Source: Escherichia phage D8. From it: a stretch of DNA of 31,345 nt. The stretch's first letter is position 1. Every line of letters starts with the position of its first letter. The translations under genes were made by a program, and so were the position numbers. Under the pieces are notes generated by a model, which was not told where the DNA came from, ran no database searches, and was given only the letters and a program-made list of their open reading frames with translations. This document shows positions 4,165 through 31,345 of this stretch, one piece after another. The DNA lies in sequence record OM475426. One strand, 5' to 3'.

Positions 4165-5238
4165 ATGCGCCAGGAAACCCGCTTTAAATTTAATGCCTAC
4201 CTGTCCCGTGTTGCCGAACTGAACGGCATCGACGCCGGTGATGTGTCGAAAAAATTCACCGTTGAACCGTCGGTCACCCAGACCCTGATGAACACCATGC
4301 AGGAGTCCTCTGACTTTCTGACCCGCATCAACATTGTGCCGGTCAGCGAAATGAAAGGGGAAAAAATTGGCATCGGTGTCACCGGCTCCATCGCCAGCAC
4401 CACCGACACCGCCGGTGGCACCGAGCGTCAGCCGAAGGACTTCTCGAAGCTGGCGTCTAACAAGTACGAATGCGACCAGATTAACTTCGATTTTTATATC
4501 CGCTACAAAACGCTGGACCTGTGGGCGCGTTATCAGGATTTCCAGCTCCGTGTCCGTAACGCCATTATCAAACGCCAGTCCCTTGATTTAATCATGGCCG
4601 GTTTTAACGGTGTGAGGCGTGCCGAAACCTCTGACCGCAGCAGCAATCCGATGCTGCAGGATGTGGCGGTCGGCTGGCTGCAGAAATACCGCAATGAAGC
4701 CCCGGCGCGCGTGATGAGCAAGGTCACTGACGAGGAAGGGCACACCACCTCTGAGGTTATCCGCGTGGGTAAGGGCGGTGATTATGCCAGCCTTGACGCA
4801 CTGGTGATGGATGCGACCAACAACCTGATTGAGCCGTGGTATCAGGAAGACCCTGACCTTGTGGTGATTGTGGGACGTCAGCTACTGGCGGACAAGTATT
4901 TTCCCATCGTCAACAAGGAGCAGGACAACAGCGAAATACTGGCCGCTGACGTCATCATCAGCCAGAAACGCATCGGTAACCTGCCGGCGGTACGCGTCCC
5001 GTACTTCCCGGCGGATGCGATGCTCATCACAAAGCTGGAAAACCTGTCCATCTACTACATGGATGACAGCCATCGCCGCGTGATTGAGGAAAACCCGAAA
5101 CTCGACCGCGTGGAGAACTACGAGTCAATGAACATTGATTACGTAGTGGAAGACTACGCCGCCGGTTGTCTGGTGGAAAAAATTAAGGTCGGTGATTTCT
5201 CCACACTGGCTAAAGCGACCGCAGAGCCGGGAGCGTAA
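4165..5238 (+). CDS. N: Major capsid protein (P2 gpN-like), 357 aa
   Basis: 357 aa equals P2 gpN; RBS-like aggaaa upstream; position O-N-M. Confidence 0.9.
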   Translation: MRQETRFKFNAYLSRVAELNGIDAGDVSKKFTVEPSVTQTLMNTMQESSDFLTRINIVPVSEMKGEKIGIGVTGSIASTTDTAGGTERQPKDFSKLASNKYECDQINFDFYIRYKTLDLWARYQDFQLRVRNAIIKRQSLDLIMAGFNGVRRAETSDRSSNPMLQDVAVGWLQKYRNEAPARVMSKVTDEEGHTTSEVIRVGKGGDYASLDALVMDATNNLIEPWYQEDPDLVVIVGRQLLADKYFPIVNKEQDNSEILAADVIISQKRIGNLPAVRVPYFPADAMLITKLENLSIYYMDDSHRRVIEENPKLDRVENYESMNIDYVVEDYAAGCLVEKIKVGDFSTLAKATAEPGA

Positions 5239-5241
5239 CCG

Positions 5242-5985
5242 ATGACGAGTCCCGCACAGCGCCACATGATGCGGGTCTCGGCAGCGATGACCGCGCAGCG
5301 GGAAGCCGCCCCGCTGCGACATGCAACTGTCTATGAGCAGATGCTGGTTAAGCTCGCCGCAGACCAGCGCACACTGAAAGCGATTTATTCAAAAGAGCTG
5401 AAGGCCGCGAAAAAACGCGAACTGCTGCCGTTCTGGTTGCCGTGGGTGAACGGCGTGCTGGAGCAGGGCAAAGGTGCACAGGATGACATTCTGATGACGG
5501 TCATGCTGTGGCGTCTGGATACCGGCGATATTGCCGGTGCGCTGGAGATTGCCCGTTATGCCCTGAAGTACGGTCTGACCATGCCGGGTAAACACCGCCG
5601 TACCCCGCCGTACATGTTCACCGAGGAGGTAGCGCTTGCGGCCATGCGCGCTCACGCTGCCGGTGAGTCTGTGGATACCCGCCTGCTGACGGAGACCCTT
5701 GAACTGACCGCCACGGCTGACATGCCTGATGAAGTGCGCGCAAAGCTGCACAAAATCACCGGTCTGTTTCTGCGTGACGGTGGTGATGCCGCCGGTGCGC
5801 TGGCTCACCTGCAACGTGCGACACAGCTCGACTGTCAGGCAGGTGTCAAAAAAGAGATTGAACGACTGGAGCGGGAGCTGAAACCGAAGCCGGAGCCGCA
5901 GCCCAAAGCGGCCACCCGTACCCCGCGTAAGAGCCGGAGCGTGACACCGGCAAAACGTGGACGCCCGAAAAAGAAAGCCAGTTAA
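5242..5985 (+). CDS. M: Terminase small (endonuclease) subunit (P2 gpM-like), 247 aa
   Basis: 247 aa equals P2 gpM; basic Lys/Arg/Pro-rich C-terminal tail; gene order. Confidence 0.88.
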   Translation: MTSPAQRHMMRVSAAMTAQREAAPLRHATVYEQMLVKLAADQRTLKAIYSKELKAAKKRELLPFWLPWVNGVLEQGKGAQDDILMTVMLWRLDTGDIAGALEIARYALKYGLTMPGKHRRTPPYMFTEEVALAAMRAHAAGESVDTRLLTETLELTATADMPDEVRAKLHKITGLFLRDGGDAAGALAHLQRATQLDCQAGVKKEIERLERELKPKPEPQPKAATRTPRKSRSVTPAKRGRPKKKAS

Positions 5986-6800: not shown

Positions 6801-7082
6801 ATGACAGCAGAAGAAAAAAGCGTCCTGTCGCTTTTCATGATTGGGGTGCTGATTGTTGTCGGCAAGGTGCTTGCCGGTGGTGAACCCATCACCCCGCGTC
6901 TGTTTATCGGGCGCATGTTGCTCGGTGGTTTTGTCTCGATGGTTGCCGGTGTTGTTCTGGTGCAGTTTCCTGACCTGTCACTGCCTGCGGTGTGCGGTAT
7001 CGGCTCCATGCTGGGTATCGCCGGTTATCAGGTGATTGAGATTGCCATTCAGCGCCGTTTTAAGGGCAGGGGGAAACCGTAA
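6801..7082 (+). CDS. Y: Holin (P2 gpY-like), 93 aa
   Basis: 93 aa as P2 Y; hydrophobic transmembrane segments (LSLFMIGVLIVVGKVLAGG; FVSMVAGVVLVQF); precedes endolysin. Confidence 0.8.
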   Translation: MTAEEKSVLSLFMIGVLIVVGKVLAGGEPITPRLFIGRMLLGGFVSMVAGVVLVQFPDLSLPAVCGIGSMLGIAGYQVIEIAIQRRFKGRGKP

Positions 7083-7579
7083 TGCCGGTAATTAACACGC
7101 ATCAGAATATCGCCGCCTTTCTCGACATGCTGGCCGTGTCCGAAGGGACGGCGAATCATCCGCTGACGAAAAACCGGGGCTATGACGTGATAGTCACCGG
7201 ACTGGACGGGAAGCCGGAAATTTTCACCGACTACAGTGACCACCCGTTCGCGCATGGCCGACCGGCGAAGGTGTTTAACCGTCGCGGTGAAAAATCCACG
7301 GCCTCCGGTCGCTATCAGCAGCTTTACCTGTTCTGGCCGCATTACCGCAAACAGCTTGCCCTGCCGGATTTCAGTCCGTTGTCACAGGACAGACTCGCCA
7401 TTCAGTTGATCCGCGAACGCGGTGCGCTGGATGACATCCGGGCGGGATGTATTGAGCGCGCCATTTCACGCTGTCGCAATATCTGGGCGTCCCTGCCGGG
7501 TGCCGGTTACGGTCAGCGTGAGCATTCACTGGAAAAACTGGTCACCGTCTGGCGTACCGCTGGCGGCGTACCGGCTTAA
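7082..7579 (+). CDS. K: Endolysin/lysozyme (P2 gpK-like), 165 aa
   Basis: 165 aa as P2 K; position after holin; start overlaps Y stop. Confidence 0.85.
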   Translation: MPVINTHQNIAAFLDMLAVSEGTANHPLTKNRGYDVIVTGLDGKPEIFTDYSDHPFAHGRPAKVFNRRGEKSTASGRYQQLYLFWPHYRKQLALPDFSPLSQDRLAIQLIRERGALDDIRAGCIERAISRCRNIWASLPGAGYGQREHSLEKLVTVWRTAGGVPA

Positions 7580-15456: not shown

Positions 15457-16050
15457 ATGTTTACTAAGCGACGATTAAAAAATATTAACTGGGAGGCAAG
15501 TTCAGTGATTCTTGCCATGGTTCTCTTTGTTGGAAATATATTTTATACAAATCATCGTGATGATATAAGCATGGAGGCTGAGAGGGACAGTATCAGAACA
15601 ATGTTTGCATATGAAATCGCTAATAACCATCGCGCTCTCACTTTTCTTGATAAAACGAGATATATTGGCTTTGACGAAAATTCGGAGCATTTTGTTGGCG
15701 AGCCTTTTGCCATTAATGTCAAATCATTAGGGGGGCCTCGCTTACAGATTGCATTAAACCAGACTGATAAAGTGTTTAAATCCTACTTCAGCGAATTAAG
15801 TAAGCTTGATAAAGAGGATGTTACTCTTCTTATGGACTATTACCATGAGCAAAGCATCCTGCTGGAGCGTGTAAAATCTACGTTACAGAAGATGAAAAGT
15901 GGTAATGATATTAAAGTTGATATTGATGGTTACTTATTAGAAGAACACTTCATGAATGAGCTTAATCTTTCTAATATTTTGCTTAAACGCTATAGCCATT
16001 TGTTGTCACAACACGCCAAAGAACATAAAACAAAAGATTTACATAATTGA
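15457..16050 (+). CDS. Cargo (moron) ORF of unknown function, 197 aa, N-terminal transmembrane anchor; at the P2 Z/fun hotspot position
   Basis: AT-rich ORF in a low-GC island between G and FI; RBS aaggtg about 8 nt before ATG; N-terminal hydrophobic helix (SSVILAMVLFVGNIFY) followed by a charged soluble region; no family recognised. Confidence 0.6.
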   Translation: MFTKRRLKNINWEASSVILAMVLFVGNIFYTNHRDDISMEAERDSIRTMFAYEIANNHRALTFLDKTRYIGFDENSEHFVGEPFAINVKSLGGPRLQIALNQTDKVFKSYFSELSKLDKEDVTLLMDYYHEQSILLERVKSTLQKMKSGNDIKVDIDGYLLEEHFMNELNLSNILLKRYSHLLSQHAKEHKTKDLHN

Positions 16051-26543: not shown

Positions 26544-26815
26544 GTATTCGTATTGAAATTGGCGAACGTTATGTCGTTACCAGTGACAGCTTTCAGTTTA
26601 TTCTCCACGAGAAAAAGAGAGCGGAAAGCGGTAAAAACGCCGGTCAGGAATGGCTGGCGGTGGTTGGTTATTACCCGAAATTAAGCCAGCTCGTTTCCGG
26701 CCTGATGCATCACGATATTCTGACCGGAAGCGCAAAATCTTTTGCTGATTTAAACGCGCAGGTTGAGCAACTCAGCAAGCGTTGTTCAGAGGCTTTTGGC
26801 TCATATGGCCGTTAA
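26540..26815 (+). CDS. Small early ORF, 91 aa, unknown function
   Basis: ATGA overlap with previous ORF; overlaps the A start by about 11 nt. Confidence 0.45.
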   Translation: MSIRIEIGERYVVTSDSFQFILHEKKRAESGKNAGQEWLAVVGYYPKLSQLVSGLMHHDILTGSAKSFADLNAQVEQLSKRCSEAFGSYGR

Positions 26816-29084
26816 AGCCTCCGGGCGTTTTGTCCCTCCGTCAGCATTTGCCGCAGGCACCGGTAAGACATTTACCGGTGCTTATGCATGGAACGCGCCA
26901 CGCGAGGCCGTCGGGCGCGAAAGACCCCTTACACGTGACGAGATGCGTCAGGTGCAAGGTGTTTTATCCACGATTAACCGCCTGCCTTACTTTTTGCGTT
27001 CGCTGTTTACTTCACGCTATGACTACATCCGGCGCAATAAAAGCCCGGTGCACGGGTTTTATTTCCTCACATCCACTTTTCAGCGTCGTTTATGGCCGCG
27101 CATTGAGCGTGTGAATCAGCGCCATGAAATGAACACCGACGCGTCGATGCTGTTTCTGGCTGAGCGTGACCACTATGCGCGCCTGCCGGGAATGAATGAC
27201 AAGGAGCTGAAAAAGTTTGCCGCCCGTATCTCATCGCAGCTTTTCATGATGTATGAGGAACTCAGCGATGCCTGGGTGGATGCGCATGGCGAGAAAGAAT
27301 CGCTGTTTACGGATGAGGCGCAGGCTCACCTCTATGGTCATGTTGCTGGCGCTGCACGTGCTTTCAATATTTCCCCGCTTTACTGGAAAAAATACCGTAA
27401 AGGACAGATGACCACGAGGCAGGCATATTCTGCCATTGCCCGTCTGTTTAACGATGAGTGGTGGACTCATCAGCTTAAAGGCCAGCGTATGCGCTGGCAT
27501 GAAGCGTTACTGATAGCTGTCGGGGAGGTCAATAAAGACCGTTCTCCTTATGCCAGTAAACACGCCATTCGTGATGTGCGTGCGCGCCGCCAGGCAAATC
27601 TGGAATTTCTTAAATCGTGTGACCTTGAAAACAGGGAAACCGGCGAGCGCATCGACCTTATCAGTAAGGTGATGGGCAGTATTTCTAATCCTGAAGTTCG
27701 CCGGATGGAGCTGATGAACACCATTGCCGGTATTGAGCGTTACGCCGCCGCAGAGGGTGATGTGGGGATGTTTATCACGCTGACCGCGCCGTCAAAGTAT
27801 CACCCGACACGTCAGGTCAGAAAAGGCGAAAGTAAAACCGTTCAGCTAAATCACGGCTGGAACGATGAGGCATTTAATCCAAAGGATGCGCAGCGTTATC
27901 TCTGCCGCATCTGGAGCCTGATGCGCACGGCATTCAAGGATAATGATTTACAGGTCTACGGTTTGCGTGTCGTCGAGCCACACCACGACGGAACGCCGCA
28001 CTGGCATATGATGCTTTTTTGTAATCCACGCCAGCGTAACCAGATTATCGAAATCATGCGTCGCTACGCGCTCAAAGAGGATGGAGACGAAAGAGGAGCT
28101 GCGCGAAACCGTTTTCAGGCAAAGCACCTTAACCGGGGCGGTGCTGCGGGATATATCGCGAAATACATTTCAAAAAATATCGACGGCTATGCACTGGATG
28201 GTCAGCTCGATAACGATACCGGTAAGCCGCTTAAAGATACTGCCGCGGCTGTTACCGCATGGGCGTCAACGTGGCGCATCCCGCAATTTAAAACGGTTGG
28301 CCTGCCGACAATGGGGGCTTACCGTGAACTACGCAAATTGCCTCGCGGCGTCAGCATTGCTGATGAGTTTGACGAGCGCGTCGAGGCTGCACGCGCCGCC
28401 GCAGACAGTGGTGATTTTGCGTTGTATATCAGCGCGCAGGGTGGGGCAAATGTCCCGCGCGATTGTCAGACTGTCAGGGTCGCCCGTAGCCCGTCGGATG
28501 ACGTTAACGAGTATGAGGAAGAAGTCGAGAGAGTGGTCGGCATTTACGCGCCGCATCTCGGCGCGCGTCATATTCATATCACCAGAACGACGGACTGGCG
28601 CATTGTGCCGAAAGTTCCGGTCGTTGAGCCCTTGACTTTAAAAAGCGGCATCGCCGCGCCTCGGAGTCCTGTCAATAACTGTGGAAAGCTCACCGGTGGT
28701 GATACTTCGTTACCGGCTCCCACGCCTTCTGAGCACGCCGCAGCAGTGCTTAATCTGGTTGATGACGGTGTTATCGAATGGAATGACCCGGAGGTCGTGA
28801 GGGCGCTCAGAAGCGCATTAAAACACGGCCTGAGAAGACCAAACCGTCAGCAAAGAAACGGAAGCCCGTTAAAACCGCATGAAATAGCGCCATCGGCCAG
28901 ACTGACCCGGTCGGAACGAATGCAAATTACCCGTATCCGCGTTGACCTTGCTCAGAACGGTATCAGGCCGCAGCGATGGGAGCTTGAGGCGCTGGCGCGA
29001 GGGGCTACCATAACATATGGCAGGAAGACGTTTATATATCCTACAATCGATGTGTGTTTGGGATATTCTGCTTTTACAAAATGA
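26805..29084 (+). CDS. A: Replication initiation protein A (rolling-circle nickase, P2 gpA-like), about 759 aa
   Basis: Start at MAVKASGRF...; length about 760 aa as P2 gpA (761 aa); HUH-like motif (PHWHMMLF) and Tyr-containing motif (AGYIAKYISKN) consistent with a rolling-circle initiator. Confidence 0.85.
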   Translation: MAVKASGRFVPPSAFAAGTGKTFTGAYAWNAPREAVGRERPLTRDEMRQVQGVLSTINRLPYFLRSLFTSRYDYIRRNKSPVHGFYFLTSTFQRRLWPRIERVNQRHEMNTDASMLFLAERDHYARLPGMNDKELKKFAARISSQLFMMYEELSDAWVDAHGEKESLFTDEAQAHLYGHVAGAARAFNISPLYWKKYRKGQMTTRQAYSAIARLFNDEWWTHQLKGQRMRWHEALLIAVGEVNKDRSPYASKHAIRDVRARRQANLEFLKSCDLENRETGERIDLISKVMGSISNPEVRRMELMNTIAGIERYAAAEGDVGMFITLTAPSKYHPTRQVRKGESKTVQLNHGWNDEAFNPKDAQRYLCRIWSLMRTAFKDNDLQVYGLRVVEPHHDGTPHWHMMLFCNPRQRNQIIEIMRRYALKEDGDERGAARNRFQAKHLNRGGAAGYIAKYISKNIDGYALDGQLDNDTGKPLKDTAAAVTAWASTWRIPQFKTVGLPTMGAYRELRKLPRGVSIADEFDERVEAARAAADSGDFALYISAQGGANVPRDCQTVRVARSPSDDVNEYEEEVERVVGIYAPHLGARHIHITRTTDWRIVPKVPVVEPLTLKSGIAAPRSPVNNCGKLTGGDTSLPAPTPSEHAAAVLNLVDDGVIEWNDPEVVRALRSALKHGLRRPNRQQRNGSPLKPHEIAPSARLTRSERMQITRIRVDLAQNGIRPQRWELEALARGATITYGRKTFIYPTIDVCLGYSAFTK

Positions 29085-29199
29085 ATGGTGTCGGAACATA
29101 ATATTTTCAGGTGTTCAAAGAGTTTGTTCTGATGTTCTTGCTATTTTTGTTTCTTTTGATGAAAATGGCGTCTTTAAAATTGGTTAAAAGGTGTGTTGT

Positions 29200-29688
29200 A
29201 TGGATGGTTTATGGGAAAAAATATCGTCTTATAATATATTTAACAATCTCTTTCCCGGTGCTTTGTTTATTTATTTGTTTGAGCGGGCAACCAATGTGAT
29301 ATTATCCACAGATGATGTTGTTAAGAATGTGGTACTTTACTATTTTACGGGGATAATTATCGGAAGGATTGGGTCTATTGTTTTTGAGCCTGTGTTGAAA
29401 TTTTTGGGGCTGGTAAAATTTGTTCCATATGAGGAATATATCTCAGCATGTAGAAAGGATAATAAAATAGAGCTTCTTCAAGAAACTGCAAATATGTATA
29501 GGACGTTATTCTCTATGTCCTTGGTTTTTTTGTTTTCTTTGTTTTTTGTTTCGTTTGTAGTTGGTGGTGATTACATGGCGTCGAAATGGATTTCATTGTT
29601 TTTGATTTTTGTTTTTATTGTGTCGTACGTTAAGCAAATTAAGTTTATTACATTAAGAGTGAGTAAGGCTAATAATAAGCTGCCCTAA
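29200..29688 (+). CDS. Cargo ORF: small polytopic membrane protein (about 4 TM helices), about 162 aa, unknown function
   Basis: AT-rich; RBS aaggtg before ATG at 29200; hydrophobic segments FPGALFIYLF, VVLYYFTGIIIGRIGSIVF, LFSMSLVFLFSLFFVSFVVGG, WISLFLIFVFIVSYV. Confidence 0.55.
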   Translation: MDGLWEKISSYNIFNNLFPGALFIYLFERATNVILSTDDVVKNVVLYYFTGIIIGRIGSIVFEPVLKFLGLVKFVPYEEYISACRKDNKIELLQETANMYRTLFSMSLVFLFSLFFVSFVVGGDYMASKWISLFLIFVFIVSYVKQIKFITLRVSKANNKLP

Positions 29689-29696
29689 GGCAGCTT
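29677..29696. terminator. Bidirectional hairpin terminator between the convergent cargo genes
   Basis: Perfect 8-bp stem aagctgcc/ctaa/ggcagctt spanning the stop codon of the plus-strand ORF and lying 7 nt from the minus-strand ORF stop; T/A-rich flank on the minus-strand side. Confidence 0.55.
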
Positions 29697-29702
29697 AACG
29701 AA

Positions 29703-30788
29703 TTATTCTTCAGTCTTATAACTCCTTGCGTATGAGCGTGGGGTGACTGCAGTCCAGCCATCTCTGGCGGGGGCATTACTAGAATGGCGTTTATTGGTGC
29801 CTTCTGTGGCGACTACTTTGGCTCCACGCCTTGTAAAAGCATTAATGACCGCTTGATGAGGGTGTTTATCGGAATCCGGTGCGCATGATATAAATGCACA
29901 AACACCACTTCTTCCTCCTTCGCTTACAATATTTCCAACGAGCTTATTTAGCACCGCTGGACCGATGTTTCTCCTGCTTCCATGGTGGGGCACTTGAATA
30001 AATGATAATGAGTTATTATTTATATGATCAGCAGCCATATCTAATGCAGTTATTCCTGCATCACCTGTAAATACTAGTGTTTTATTGTCAATTTCAATTT
30101 TTAATATAACGCTTGAATTGTTTTGTGCAGTAGTTGTGTCCTTGTCATCAATTCCCTCATCAGAGAACCAATCAGCAATATACTCGACTTGTTCTTTGGC
30201 TTTCTCAAAAAAGTAGTTATATGCATCTGTACCACTGGTTGCAGTTGTTTCTGCTTTTTCAGGCATTCTTGCAAAATCGGGGATTAATGTTTCATAGTAT
30301 GCTTGTGTTGGTCCAATAACAACCAGTTTAGAATTGTCCCAAGTCCTGCCTTGAAAAGGCTCCTTAATTTCTATTCCTTTTTTTTTCGCTGATTTGACGG
30401 CATCATAGGCTTTTTGTAGATTATCTTGTATACGTCTGGCAATACTTGCATCTGTTATCCTTCCATCAGCAAATTCCTGCGCGAGATTTTCATTATGCTC
30501 CCAAGGCTGGTGAATCCAGAACTCTTTGACTTCCGCATTCTCAATCACATGCTCAAGGCCGCCAGCATGGTCGCTATCTGGATGCGTGGATATGAGTAAG
30601 TCAATAGTATTTGTATGATAGTATTTCTGTAAATGTTCAATTATTTGTGGACCAGTGCTTGCGTACCCCGCATCAATTACGACAACTTTTTGCTCTGCTC
30701 TTGTTCCGTGGAGGTTGCCCCATCTTATGCAGATAGCATCTCCACTTTTTTTTTCTCCAACTGCTAAGAAATCAACTTCGTAACCCAT
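29703..30788 (-). CDS. Cargo ORF: metallo-beta-lactamase-fold hydrolase (possible nuclease), 361 aa
   Basis: All five MBL-fold motifs in order: VVVIDAG (Asp), STHPDSDHAGG (HxDxDH variant of HxHxDH), FWIHQ (His), VFTGDAG (Asp), VPHHGS (His); AT-rich; RBS-like aaggg before ATG; located where P2 carries tin/old. Confidence 0.75.
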   Translation of the reverse strand: MGYEVDFLAVGEKKSGDAICIRWGNLHGTRAEQKVVVIDAGYASTGPQIIEHLQKYYHTNTIDLLISTHPDSDHAGGLEHVIENAEVKEFWIHQPWEHNENLAQEFADGRITDASIARRIQDNLQKAYDAVKSAKKKGIEIKEPFQGRTWDNSKLVVIGPTQAYYETLIPDFARMPEKAETTATSGTDAYNYFFEKAKEQVEYIADWFSDEGIDDKDTTTAQNNSSVILKIEIDNKTLVFTGDAGITALDMAADHINNNSLSFIQVPHHGSRRNIGPAVLNKLVGNIVSEGGRSGVCAFISCAPDSDKHPHQAVINAFTRRGAKVVATEGTNKRHSSNAPARDGWTAVTPRSYARSYKTEE

Positions 30789-31128
30789 TCTTGTGCCCTT
30801 CTGTAGTTTTCAACTTTATGTAAGTGTTGTACGCCAAAGTAGTGCAGGACTTGATTAGGCAATCAAAGACCTTTAAAACAATATCAGGATGCATAAATAT
30901 TCGTGTCTAGATCAATAGATTAGATCGAGTTTTTGATAATCAATTTGCGCCTGCTTCTTGATAACCGTTGTTAGTGTAAATTTTGCGCAATGTAATTGGC
31001 AAATCACTGCGATATGAGTTGCGTGCCAGCCAGCTTTAATATGCAGACTTTGCTATATCTTTCTACACGATTTTTATTTTCAGATGTGCAAGCATTAGGC
31101 GCATTGTTTTGCATGCGTTGGAGCTGCT

Positions 31129-31220
31129 AGTTTAGATCGTGCTCCGTCAGAATAGGCGCGACACCATGGTGGTCATGCACCTGCATTAAAACCGACCCAT
31201 GAAGCGGGCGGGCGAGGCGG
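31129..31220. repeat. Second copy of the 92-bp terminal direct repeat (identical to window bases 1-92), includes the first half of the cos-like sequence
   Basis: Exact match read from sequence; divergence begins at 31221. Confidence 0.9.
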
Positions 31221-31345
31221 CATTAGATATGGCTGCTGATCATATAAATAATAACTCATTATCATTTATTCAAGTGCCCCACCATGGAAGCAGGAGAAAC
31301 ATCGGTCCAGCGGTGCTAAATAAGCTCGTTGGAAATATTGTAAGC
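31221..31345. repeat. 125-bp inverted duplication: reverse complement of 29922-30046 (internal to the MBL-fold gene)
   Basis: Reverse complement of gcttacaatatttccaacgagc...cagccatatctaatg (29922-30046) equals 31221-31345 exactly as far as I can read. Confidence 0.85.

Follow-up and report, generated by a model that had tools for sequence, protein, structure and literature searches.

The question raised by Escherichia phage D8 is what the AT-rich DNA near the right end of its genome encodes, and what it may do for the phage and for the cell that carries it as a prophage. The window, i.e., the whole stretch of DNA that was analyzed, comprises 31,345 nucleotides of this P2-like phage of the genus Peduovirus (sequence record OM475426), and the locus in question occupies positions 29085–31128, between the stop codon of the replication gene A and the terminal repeat. 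An initial annotation, made from the letters of the sequence, had described it as an island of foreign DNA with two cargo genes and as the strongest candidate in the window for an undescribed system. One of these genes encodes a putative membrane protein of 162 amino acids, and the other a 361-amino-acid protein with a metallo-β-lactamase (MBL) domain. Here, we describe the composition and borders of this cassette, the two proteins and their linkage in other species, and weigh what the pair might do.

An acquired two-gene cassette at the gpA-cos hotspot

The AT-rich 2-kb stretch is a horizontally acquired two-gene cassette. Its GC content is 0.382, as compared to 0.530 for positions 1–29084, and none of the windows of 2044 bp elsewhere in D8 (mean 0.528, standard deviation 0.053, minimum 0.406) came down to this value; milder low-GC regions are also present at 12.5–16.5 kb and 22.5–26.5 kb. 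In 200-bp windows, the GC content drops from 0.50–0.57 to 0.31–0.35 just past ~29000 and returns to ~0.46–0.49 past ~31000. The GC content at third codon positions (GC3) is 0.356 in the membrane-protein gene and 0.309 in the MBL gene, as compared to 0.648 ± 0.052 in the 15 backbone genes used as the codon-usage reference (z = −5.6 and −6.5), and the log-likelihood of their synonymous codons under the backbone table, judged against leave-one-out values of the backbone genes, has z values of −5.6 and −5.2, respectively. The claim that the stretch is AT-richer than the phage backbone was thus borne out by sliding-window GC, GC3 and codon likelihood, which excludes a composition indistinguishable from that of the backbone. 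Likewise, exactly two credible open reading frames (ORFs) were present, as had been proposed together with about 340 bp of AT-rich upstream DNA. They are convergent, which the initial annotation had not noted, lie 14 bp apart (Table 1), and do not form an operon; Shine-Dalgarno-like sequences precede both starts, with GAAGG located ~8 nt before the ATG of the MBL gene. No convincing ORF and no Rfam match were found in the 340 bp upstream of the MBL gene (30789–31128), and the Rfam scan of positions 28900–31345 returned only a sub-threshold match to a small RNA (E = 0.69).

The borders of the exchanged DNA were located by blastn across the circularized junction. P2 and a prophage of E. coli strain 144, which carries a 73% variant of the cassette, are similar to D8 up to 29026, and therefore the last 19 codons of gene A (26763–29084; Pfam Phage_GPA, E = 4e−122) lie inside the exchanged segment. 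On the right, similarity resumes at 31075 in the variant-carrying prophage or at 31182 in P2. The limits initially assigned to the island hold for the AT-rich stretch with its two genes, but the exchange itself starts at 29026/29027 inside A and ends, depending on the relative, at 31074/31075 or 31181/31182.

The cassette is located between gene A and cos followed by the portal gene Q, where P2 carries orf91, tin and old. The homology to P2 is interrupted at this place, which supports the view that accessory DNA was acquired at the exchangeable tin/old site. The layout is alike in both phages, i.e., a small rightward gene follows A and leftward cargo is read from the cos side, but no similarity of the cassette to old, tin or orf91 was found in the junction comparison with P2. 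Among 5426 complete E. coli genomes, the adjoining part of the backbone gene A occurs at 2009 places in 1714 genomes, while one or the other variant of the cassette was found at 46 places in 45 genomes, i.e., at ~2% of the P2-type A loci. As P2 is also devoid of it, the cassette is not a core element of all P2-like phages. It is carried at at least 99% identity by 22 records from unrelated E. coli genomes, with ~99.9–100% identity over the island among the matches listed, and 23 records carry the ~73%-identical variant. The convergent layout is kept in this variant (73% DNA identity), in Huaxiibacter, and in a Yersinia P2-like prophage whose copy (55% protein identity) is found between A and ogr/portal, which implies purifying selection; since the Yersinia copy occupies the same site, a long residence under selection in this phage family can be argued. 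In P2-like prophages, the gpA-cos locus serves as a reservoir for defence systems, as shown by Rousset et al. (2022, PMC9122126). The variant in the strain 144 prophage (L004) has an additional gene of 145 amino acids (6826–7263, WP_001752367) upstream of the MBL gene, where D8 has non-coding DNA. Its product matches phrog_2266 (unknown function), gave no match in Pfam, NCBIfam or PADLOC, and has no counterpart in D8.

The two proteins and their linkage in other species

Sequence and model comparisons indicate that the 361-amino-acid protein is a ComEC-type MBL-fold hydrolase with a complete metal site. The sole Pfam domain found in it is Lactamase_B (E = 2.4e−13), and residues 3–355 match positions 5–353 of 357 in the PADLOC model PDC-M48B (PDLC04676, E = 6.4e−99, 329 bits). 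The protein also matches the PADLOC models of the LmuA-type MBL, RTasMBL and Avs1a, being near-colinear with the MBL partners of Lamassu, DRT and AVAST systems. In a profile search built on 46 homologues, the nearest solved proteins were those of the MBL domain of ComEC (9ic4/30bt), with the motifs THPDxDH and PHHGSR in common, and 9ic4 was also the best Foldseek match (E = 3.2e−14, template modelling score 0.75 normalized to the target) of an AlphaFold2 (AF2) model with a predicted local distance difference test (pLDDT) score of 90.4. Residues H69, D71, D73, H74, D243, H268 and H269 are invariant across the 46 homologues. Approximately 68 residues beyond ComEC are located between profile positions 89 and 215, from the first motif to the NNSS strand; this extra segment contains a disordered loop of low pLDDT (176–199) and is the same one in which protease-gated pro-nucleases carry insertions that block the active site. 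The protein ends in a conserved acidic motif, with no Gly-containing C-terminal tail. The family search retrieved 2401 relatives. The enzyme is probably a DNase, i.e., DNA would be its substrate.

For the membrane protein, homologues and public annotation both support the start ATG at 29200 (a purely mechanical ORF call would begin at GTG 29191). Residues 4–162 match positions 1–162 of 164 in the PADLOC model PDC-M48A (PDLC04670, E = 6.8e−49, 164 bits), and the protein belongs to phrog_11864 (unknown function, E = 5.7e−98); no family was found for it in Pfam and NCBIfam. The AF2 model (pLDDT 88.9) has four long helices (10–31, 40–68, 89–121 and 126–157) that agree with the hydropathy peaks, and the protein is accordingly modelled as a four-helix inner-membrane protein. 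By the positive-inside rule, its N terminus, the 66–100 loop and the basic C terminus would be cytoplasmic. The homologue alignment contains 19 invariant, mostly polar residues on one face, nearly all of them on the predicted cytoplasmic parts and including those of the motifs EKISSYNIFNN-LFPG, SRIGS, NMYRT and SY-KQ. A fold search against the PDB returned nothing significant (best E = 0.26, helical-bundle noise). The family is large and old, comprising 1225 clusters at 50% identity, and no enzyme fusion was found in a Rosetta-stone test, as the best 150 of the 1225 representatives are all stand-alone proteins of 158–216 amino acids. A collection with one genome per species contained 246 relatives, spanning Proteobacteria, Bacteroidota, Firmicutes, Nitrospirota, Spirochaetes, Chlamydiae and Patescibacteria.

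The public annotations of both genes are misleading. The MBL gene is named 'tail protein' in NC_049389, a label traced to the composite family phrog_7043 (matched at 619–901 of 1077), and its product bears the RefSeq name 'ComEC/Rec2 family competence protein'. This last identity was ruled out, as the protein scores 50.9 bits in TIGR00361 against a cut-off of 190, matching the C-terminal MBL part only. Several public records call the membrane protein 'phosphohistidine phosphatase', a name backed by no NCBIfam or Pfam model.

The two families are near-obligately linked across phyla. Linkage was assessed in the 80 best membrane-protein loci from different species, a sample chosen by membrane-protein similarity. 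An MBL gene lies within 500 bp of the membrane-protein gene in 61 of the 80 loci, and 60 of these 61 close pairs are co-directional and often overlapping; convergent copies are confined to enterobacterial loci (L004, L013 and L095). Most of the other loci hold an MBL gene, a Cap2/Cap3 fusion and the membrane-protein gene together, and a single locus out of 80 lacks an MBL gene within 5 kb. In approximately 15 of the 80 loci, genes for an MBL enzyme and for a protein of 750–800 amino acids, the Cap2/Cap3 fusion, lie beside the membrane-protein gene, usually in the order MBL, large protein, membrane protein, which corresponds to the 6A-MBL architecture. One of these larger loci, L020, exceeds both NCBIfam cut-offs for the 6A-MBL system (MBL enzyme 433.6 bits, cap2_3 575 bits), and in both L020 and L098 the membrane-protein family directly follows cap2_3 (for the third gene of L098: hhalign, E = 2.9e−55).

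When 6A-MBL loci were sampled by way of their enzymes, one locus had the D8-type membrane family and two had an unrelated protein of 2TM-loop-2TM organization (TM, transmembrane helix). An unrelated 2TM-loop-2TM protein also accompanies the MBLs of Chromobacterium and Microbulbifer, which are 50–53% identical to that of D8. This suggests that the membrane component is exchangeable, for D8-type and 6A-type MBLs alike. The general architecture is thus an MBL enzyme accompanied by a small membrane protein with four passes, whether Cap2/Cap3 is present or not, and the D8 cassette is its minimal form. A mirror-tree comparison of membrane-protein and MBL identities gave a weak but significant correlation (rho 0.19, Mantel 0/999) in these loci, which were selected by membrane-protein similarity. 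The 127 flanking ORFs are rich in ResIII, SNF2, Fic, PLDc_2, Mrr_cat, NERD, Schlafen, TIR_2, WYL and integrases (counts without a background control), and single loci adjoin type I restriction-modification or McrBC genes; this is the kind of neighbourhood usually seen in defence islands and mobile elements.

Several further arrangements were recorded in these loci. The membrane family is encoded directly downstream of the Cap2/Cap3 fusion in L020, L028, L038, L044, L050, L051, L068, L072, L082, L088, L098 and others, while NCBIfam has models for no 6A-MBL component other than the enzyme and the Cap2/3 fusion. The unrelated 2TM-loop-2TM partners of MBLs have 207–254 amino acids and are located at 5102–5725 in L093, 5095–5760 in L094, 8467–9231 in L097 and 8477–9238 in L099. 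In Acidithiobacillus ferrivorans (L058), a 6A-type MBL, a Cap2/3-sized gene, a D8-type MBL and the membrane-protein gene follow in a row, with both MBL types next to one membrane-protein gene.

Relation to named systems and possible functions

The idea of an undescribed system was not upheld. Both genes match models of PDC-M48, a candidate system of PADLOC-DB v2 (2023), which agrees with the proposal of a defence cassette, and Rousset et al. (2022, PMC9122126) list the exact pair (WP_021533448 + WP_021533447) in their Table S5 under the label 'hypothetical + Lactamase_B'. The word 'lactamase' is absent from the table of tested systems in that paper, and 'PDC-M48' was not found in the searchable literature; the pair is catalogued but experimentally uncharacterized. 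Rst_Hydrolase-3TM (Rousset et al. 2022) was considered and rejected, as that hydrolase is HAD-like and comes from the P4 hotspot, while the D8 enzyme is MBL-fold; the 'hydrolase + TM' of the same study (PMC9122126) is an unrelated HAD-like hydrolase from P4 satellites. Adjacent in the genome, the two D8 proteins match the hidden Markov models of PDC-M48 end to end, but this computational candidate is usually a co-directional, often overlapping operon, in contrast to the convergent D8 genes. A short-MBL pair from Faecalibacillus matches another PDC-M48B sub-model. In Faecalibacillus intestinalis (L006–L009), a widely sampled gut Firmicute (267 index blocks), a DUF4365 gene (4916–5962) with a weak match to the PADLOC model Aga_REase is found directly upstream of the membrane-protein/short-MBL operon.

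The 6A-MBL system is said to have been validated as an anti-phage system by van den Berg and co-workers in 2024. NCBI also gives it this name, defining it by an MBL enzyme (NF058524) and a Cap2/Cap3 fusion (NF058523). Many 6A-MBL loci encode the membrane-protein family of D8 next to Cap2/3, and others use a different membrane protein. Their MBL enzymes are distant relatives of the D8 enzyme, which reaches 33.8 bits against the 220-bit cut-off of NF058524. The D8 cassette differs in having no Cap2/Cap3 (E2-E1-JAB) ORF in positions 29027–31181, and the 6A-type MBLs have low-complexity tails with Gly near the end, as in Cap2 substrates, which D8-type MBLs do not.

A homologous ComEC-like MBL fold is shared with the protease-gated pro-nucleases, i.e., HamM of HamMAB, Avs1a and the Lamassu- and DRT-associated MBLs. 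The LmuA-type model is colinear with the D8 enzyme (residues 13–283 versus 10–278 of 345, E = 5.6e−28), while in the Avs1a equivalog model the D8 enzyme scores 62.7, where 420 would be needed. Members of the Lamassu/DRT/AVAST-associated MBL group are DNases that act as defence effectors, and related MBLs are DNase pro-enzymes with inhibitory loops that are cut by a partner trypsin-like protease (PMC12799240; bioRxiv 2025.09.03.673762). In HamMAB, Avs1 and Lamassu-MBL the partner is a fusion of a sensor with a trypsin-like or caspase protease, whereas in D8 it is a membrane protein, neither of the two genes has a protease domain, and the D8 loop has no conserved cleavage residue. The C-terminal MBL nuclease domain of ComEC/Rec2 is the best match in both sequence and fold, and both arrangements combine a membrane part with a nuclease, but D8 has no competence, OB or DUF4131 domains, and its membrane partner is a separate, unrelated protein of 162 amino acids. 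The cassette is therefore best filed as an uncharacterized variant of the MBL-based defence modules, without protease and without Cap2/3.

The reading we favour, with about even confidence, is that the cassette is an anti-phage module expressed in the lysogen, in which the MBL DNase executes and the four-helix membrane partner controls. A defence role is suggested because of the gpA-cos location, the ~2% occurrence, the PADLOC matches, the kinship of the MBL enzyme, the linkage of the two families and their defence-island-like context. In such a scheme, a mobile PDC-M48-type cassette in the gpA-cos hotspot would exclude other phages from the lysogen, a role equal to that of old and tin in P2. 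The MBL enzyme would be a cytoplasmic ComEC-type phosphodiesterase, most likely a DNase, acting as the executing enzyme; the membrane protein would restrain or position it, possibly by direct contact, and relay an infection cue from the membrane, and the nuclease, once released or activated, would degrade the DNA of the invader or all DNA (abortive infection). This assignment of roles to the two proteins is tentative, and we hold it with less confidence than the reading as a whole. Regarding expression, the old-tin promoter of P2 makes it plausible, by analogy, that 30789–31128 contains an autonomous promoter, as the initial annotation expected. An alignment of the upstream region with the mapped P2 promoter gave no convincing equivalent, and the sites before the MBL gene (31002–30973 and 30909–30880) are weak, with matches to 9 of 12 consensus positions at best; the best promoter-like match of the region lies upstream of the membrane-protein gene (10 of 12, Table 1).

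Several observations weigh against this reading. Promoter-like sites are no more frequent in the consensus scan than in shuffled sequence, and because the genes are convergent here, unlike in 60 of the 61 other pairs, their co-regulation cannot be assumed. As the cassette has no protease, the only demonstrated activation route of the related pro-nucleases is unavailable, and the sequence of loop 177–199 is not conserved among the 46 homologues. In known defence systems, membrane proteins that are small and multi-pass usually serve as effectors rather than as sensors. The membrane proteins stay ~50% identical while their MBL partners form at least 10 clusters with less than ~28% identity, so that a common ligand is easier to envisage than docking on each nuclease, bearing in mind that the loci were chosen by membrane-protein similarity. 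The Gly-containing tail of the 6A-type MBLs resembles that of the conjugated signalling enzymes of type II CBASS, and no experiment on the D8-type pair was found in the searchable literature.

Some of these points fit better with an exchange of roles, a serious rival though somewhat unlikely: the MBL protein would sense the phage and signal, by a small hydrolysis product or otherwise, and the membrane protein would kill by depolarizing the inner membrane, with abortive infection as the outcome. The cassette would then be a minimal 'type I' form and 6A-MBL its Cap2/Cap3-primed 'type II' counterpart, in parallel to CBASS and Pycsar. The presence of the membrane family as the third gene of bona fide 6A-MBL loci (L020 and L098), its conservation across very different MBL partners, and the clustering of its invariant polar residues on one face are in line with this, as is the occurrence of unrelated 2TM-loop-2TM partners in D8-type and 6A-type loci, a behaviour typical of exchangeable effectors. 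The Cap2-substrate-like Gly tails of the 6A-type MBLs, which the D8-type enzymes lack, point in the same direction, and 'Type II CBASS/Pycsar/MBL' have been grouped as pathways in which an E2-E1 fusion conjugates the signalling enzyme (PMC11601596). On the other hand, the closest characterized MBL relatives are DNases and themselves effectors, the soluble part of the membrane protein (~35–50 residues) is small for a ligand-binding domain, and its model resembles no known pore-former or effector in the fold search. MBL-fold enzymes are hydrolases, and we know of none that makes a second messenger. A bolder version, which we regard as improbable, would see in the pair the minimal core of a third CBASS/Pycsar-like pathway, where the MBL hydrolase responds and drives the membrane effector through a diffusible product or a hand-off, 6A-MBL being the Cap2/Cap3-primed 'type II' and the cassette of P2-like phages the 'type I' that E. 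coli prophages use against competitors.

A function outside defence is quite unlikely. The cassette could act in DNA uptake or processing as a split ComEC-like channel plus nuclease, in prophage stabilization as an addiction module, or in host fitness or virulence as a moron. Its RefSeq name and the union of a membrane domain with an MBL nuclease in ComEC speak for the first option, but the ComEC equivalog score is far below its cut-off, competence and DUF4131 domains are missing, and no Pfam family shows a detectable resemblance to the membrane protein. The hotspot does bear non-defence cargo, namely partition systems and cytolethal distending toxin (Rousset et al. 2022, PMC9122126), but relatives of the pair occur in defence-island-like contexts across phyla, and the sister architecture 6A-MBL is an anti-phage system in the NCBI nomenclature. 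Decaying or inert hitch-hiker DNA in a recombination-prone site, of no use to phage or host, is very improbable: the gene order is inverted relative to nearly all other pairs and a rearrangement could have broken the operon, but both ORFs are intact with Shine-Dalgarno-like sequences, all conserved residues are present, the island is almost invariant among the listed E. coli matches, and the convergent layout is kept under apparent purifying selection. Both of these explanations are less likely than the anti-phage module with an executing MBL DNase and than its counterpart with exchanged roles.

Further features of the record and significance of the pair

The features located in and around the cassette are collected in Table 1. 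The hairpin between the convergent genes, AAGCUGCC-loop-GGCAGCUU, has a folding energy of −17.9 kcal/mol (z = −4.1) on the plus strand and −17.3 kcal/mol (z = −2.7) on the minus strand, and is a candidate bidirectional terminator.

Table 1. Coordinates of the cassette genes, putative signals, junctions and terminal artefact in the D8 record
Feature	Position	Strand	Evidence or remark
Left junction (final 19 codons of replication gene A, variable)	29027..29084	+	blastn against P2 and strain 144 prophage; GC drop
Promoter-like site TTTACA-18-CATAAT, 10 of 12	29073..29102	+	Consensus match; overlaps the A stop codon, upstream of the membrane-protein gene
Membrane-protein gene, 162 amino acids, PDC-M48A family	29200..29688	+	PADLOC, PHROG, alignment, AF2, hydropathy
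GC-rich hairpin, candidate terminator	29679..29698	.	Between the convergent genes; overlaps the membrane-gene stop codon
Predicted ComEC-type MBL-fold hydrolase gene, 361 amino acids, PDC-M48B family	29703..30788	-	Pfam, PADLOC, PDB profile, AF2, Foldseek
Cassette-specific AT-rich non-coding DNA upstream of the MBL gene; expected promoter site	30789..31074	-	
Right flank common to P2-like prophages, leading into cos	31075..31219		From 31075 (variant-carrying prophage) or 31182 (P2)
Probable artefactual 126-nt tail	31220..31345	.	Repeat search; prophage comparison

A second strongly AT-rich gene is located at 15457–16050 on the plus strand (197 amino acids, GC 0.354, GC3 0.343, codon-usage z = −3.4), between the tail-fibre genes and the sheath gene, the position of the other variable locus of P2, Z/fun. 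Its product matches phrog_3829 (unknown function) and gave no Pfam or PADLOC match; it is another candidate cargo gene.

The cassette region of D8 is 100% identical to those of Escherichia phages 12W and 11W and of Peduovirus P24E6b, and across the cos junction a prophage of E. coli 118UI is 99.98% identical. The terminal repeat noted at the outset was confirmed: positions 1–92 are identical to 31129–31220. With this 92-bp direct terminal redundancy counted once, the genome has a unique length of 31128 bp, which is also that of the P24E6b record. The full cos sequence, GGCGAGGCGGGGAAAGCAC, is found at 85–103. The last 126 nt (31220–31345) are a perfect inverted copy of 29922–30047 within the MBL gene (100% complementary), fused within cos after GGCGAGGCGG, while the 118UI prophage passes from 31220 straight into position 93 of D8 and onward without such a copy. 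Judging from these comparisons, the terminal 126 nt look like an assembly or chimeric-read artefact and no part of the phage. The public record OM475434 (12W, 'partial genome'), in which the 126-nt query matched at two places, seems to contain the same artefact.

The pair is small, with 1.6 kb of coding DNA, and the E. coli phage that carries it is tractable; both protein families are spread over many bacterial phyla. To our knowledge, activation depends on a partner protease in every MBL-nuclease defence module characterized to date. The D8 cassette has no such protease, and control of an MBL enzyme by a membrane protein, or of the membrane protein by the enzyme, would add a new regulatory logic. 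Understanding the mechanism of the pair would also clarify that of 6A-MBL, a reportedly validated but mechanistically open system that shares the same membrane protein.

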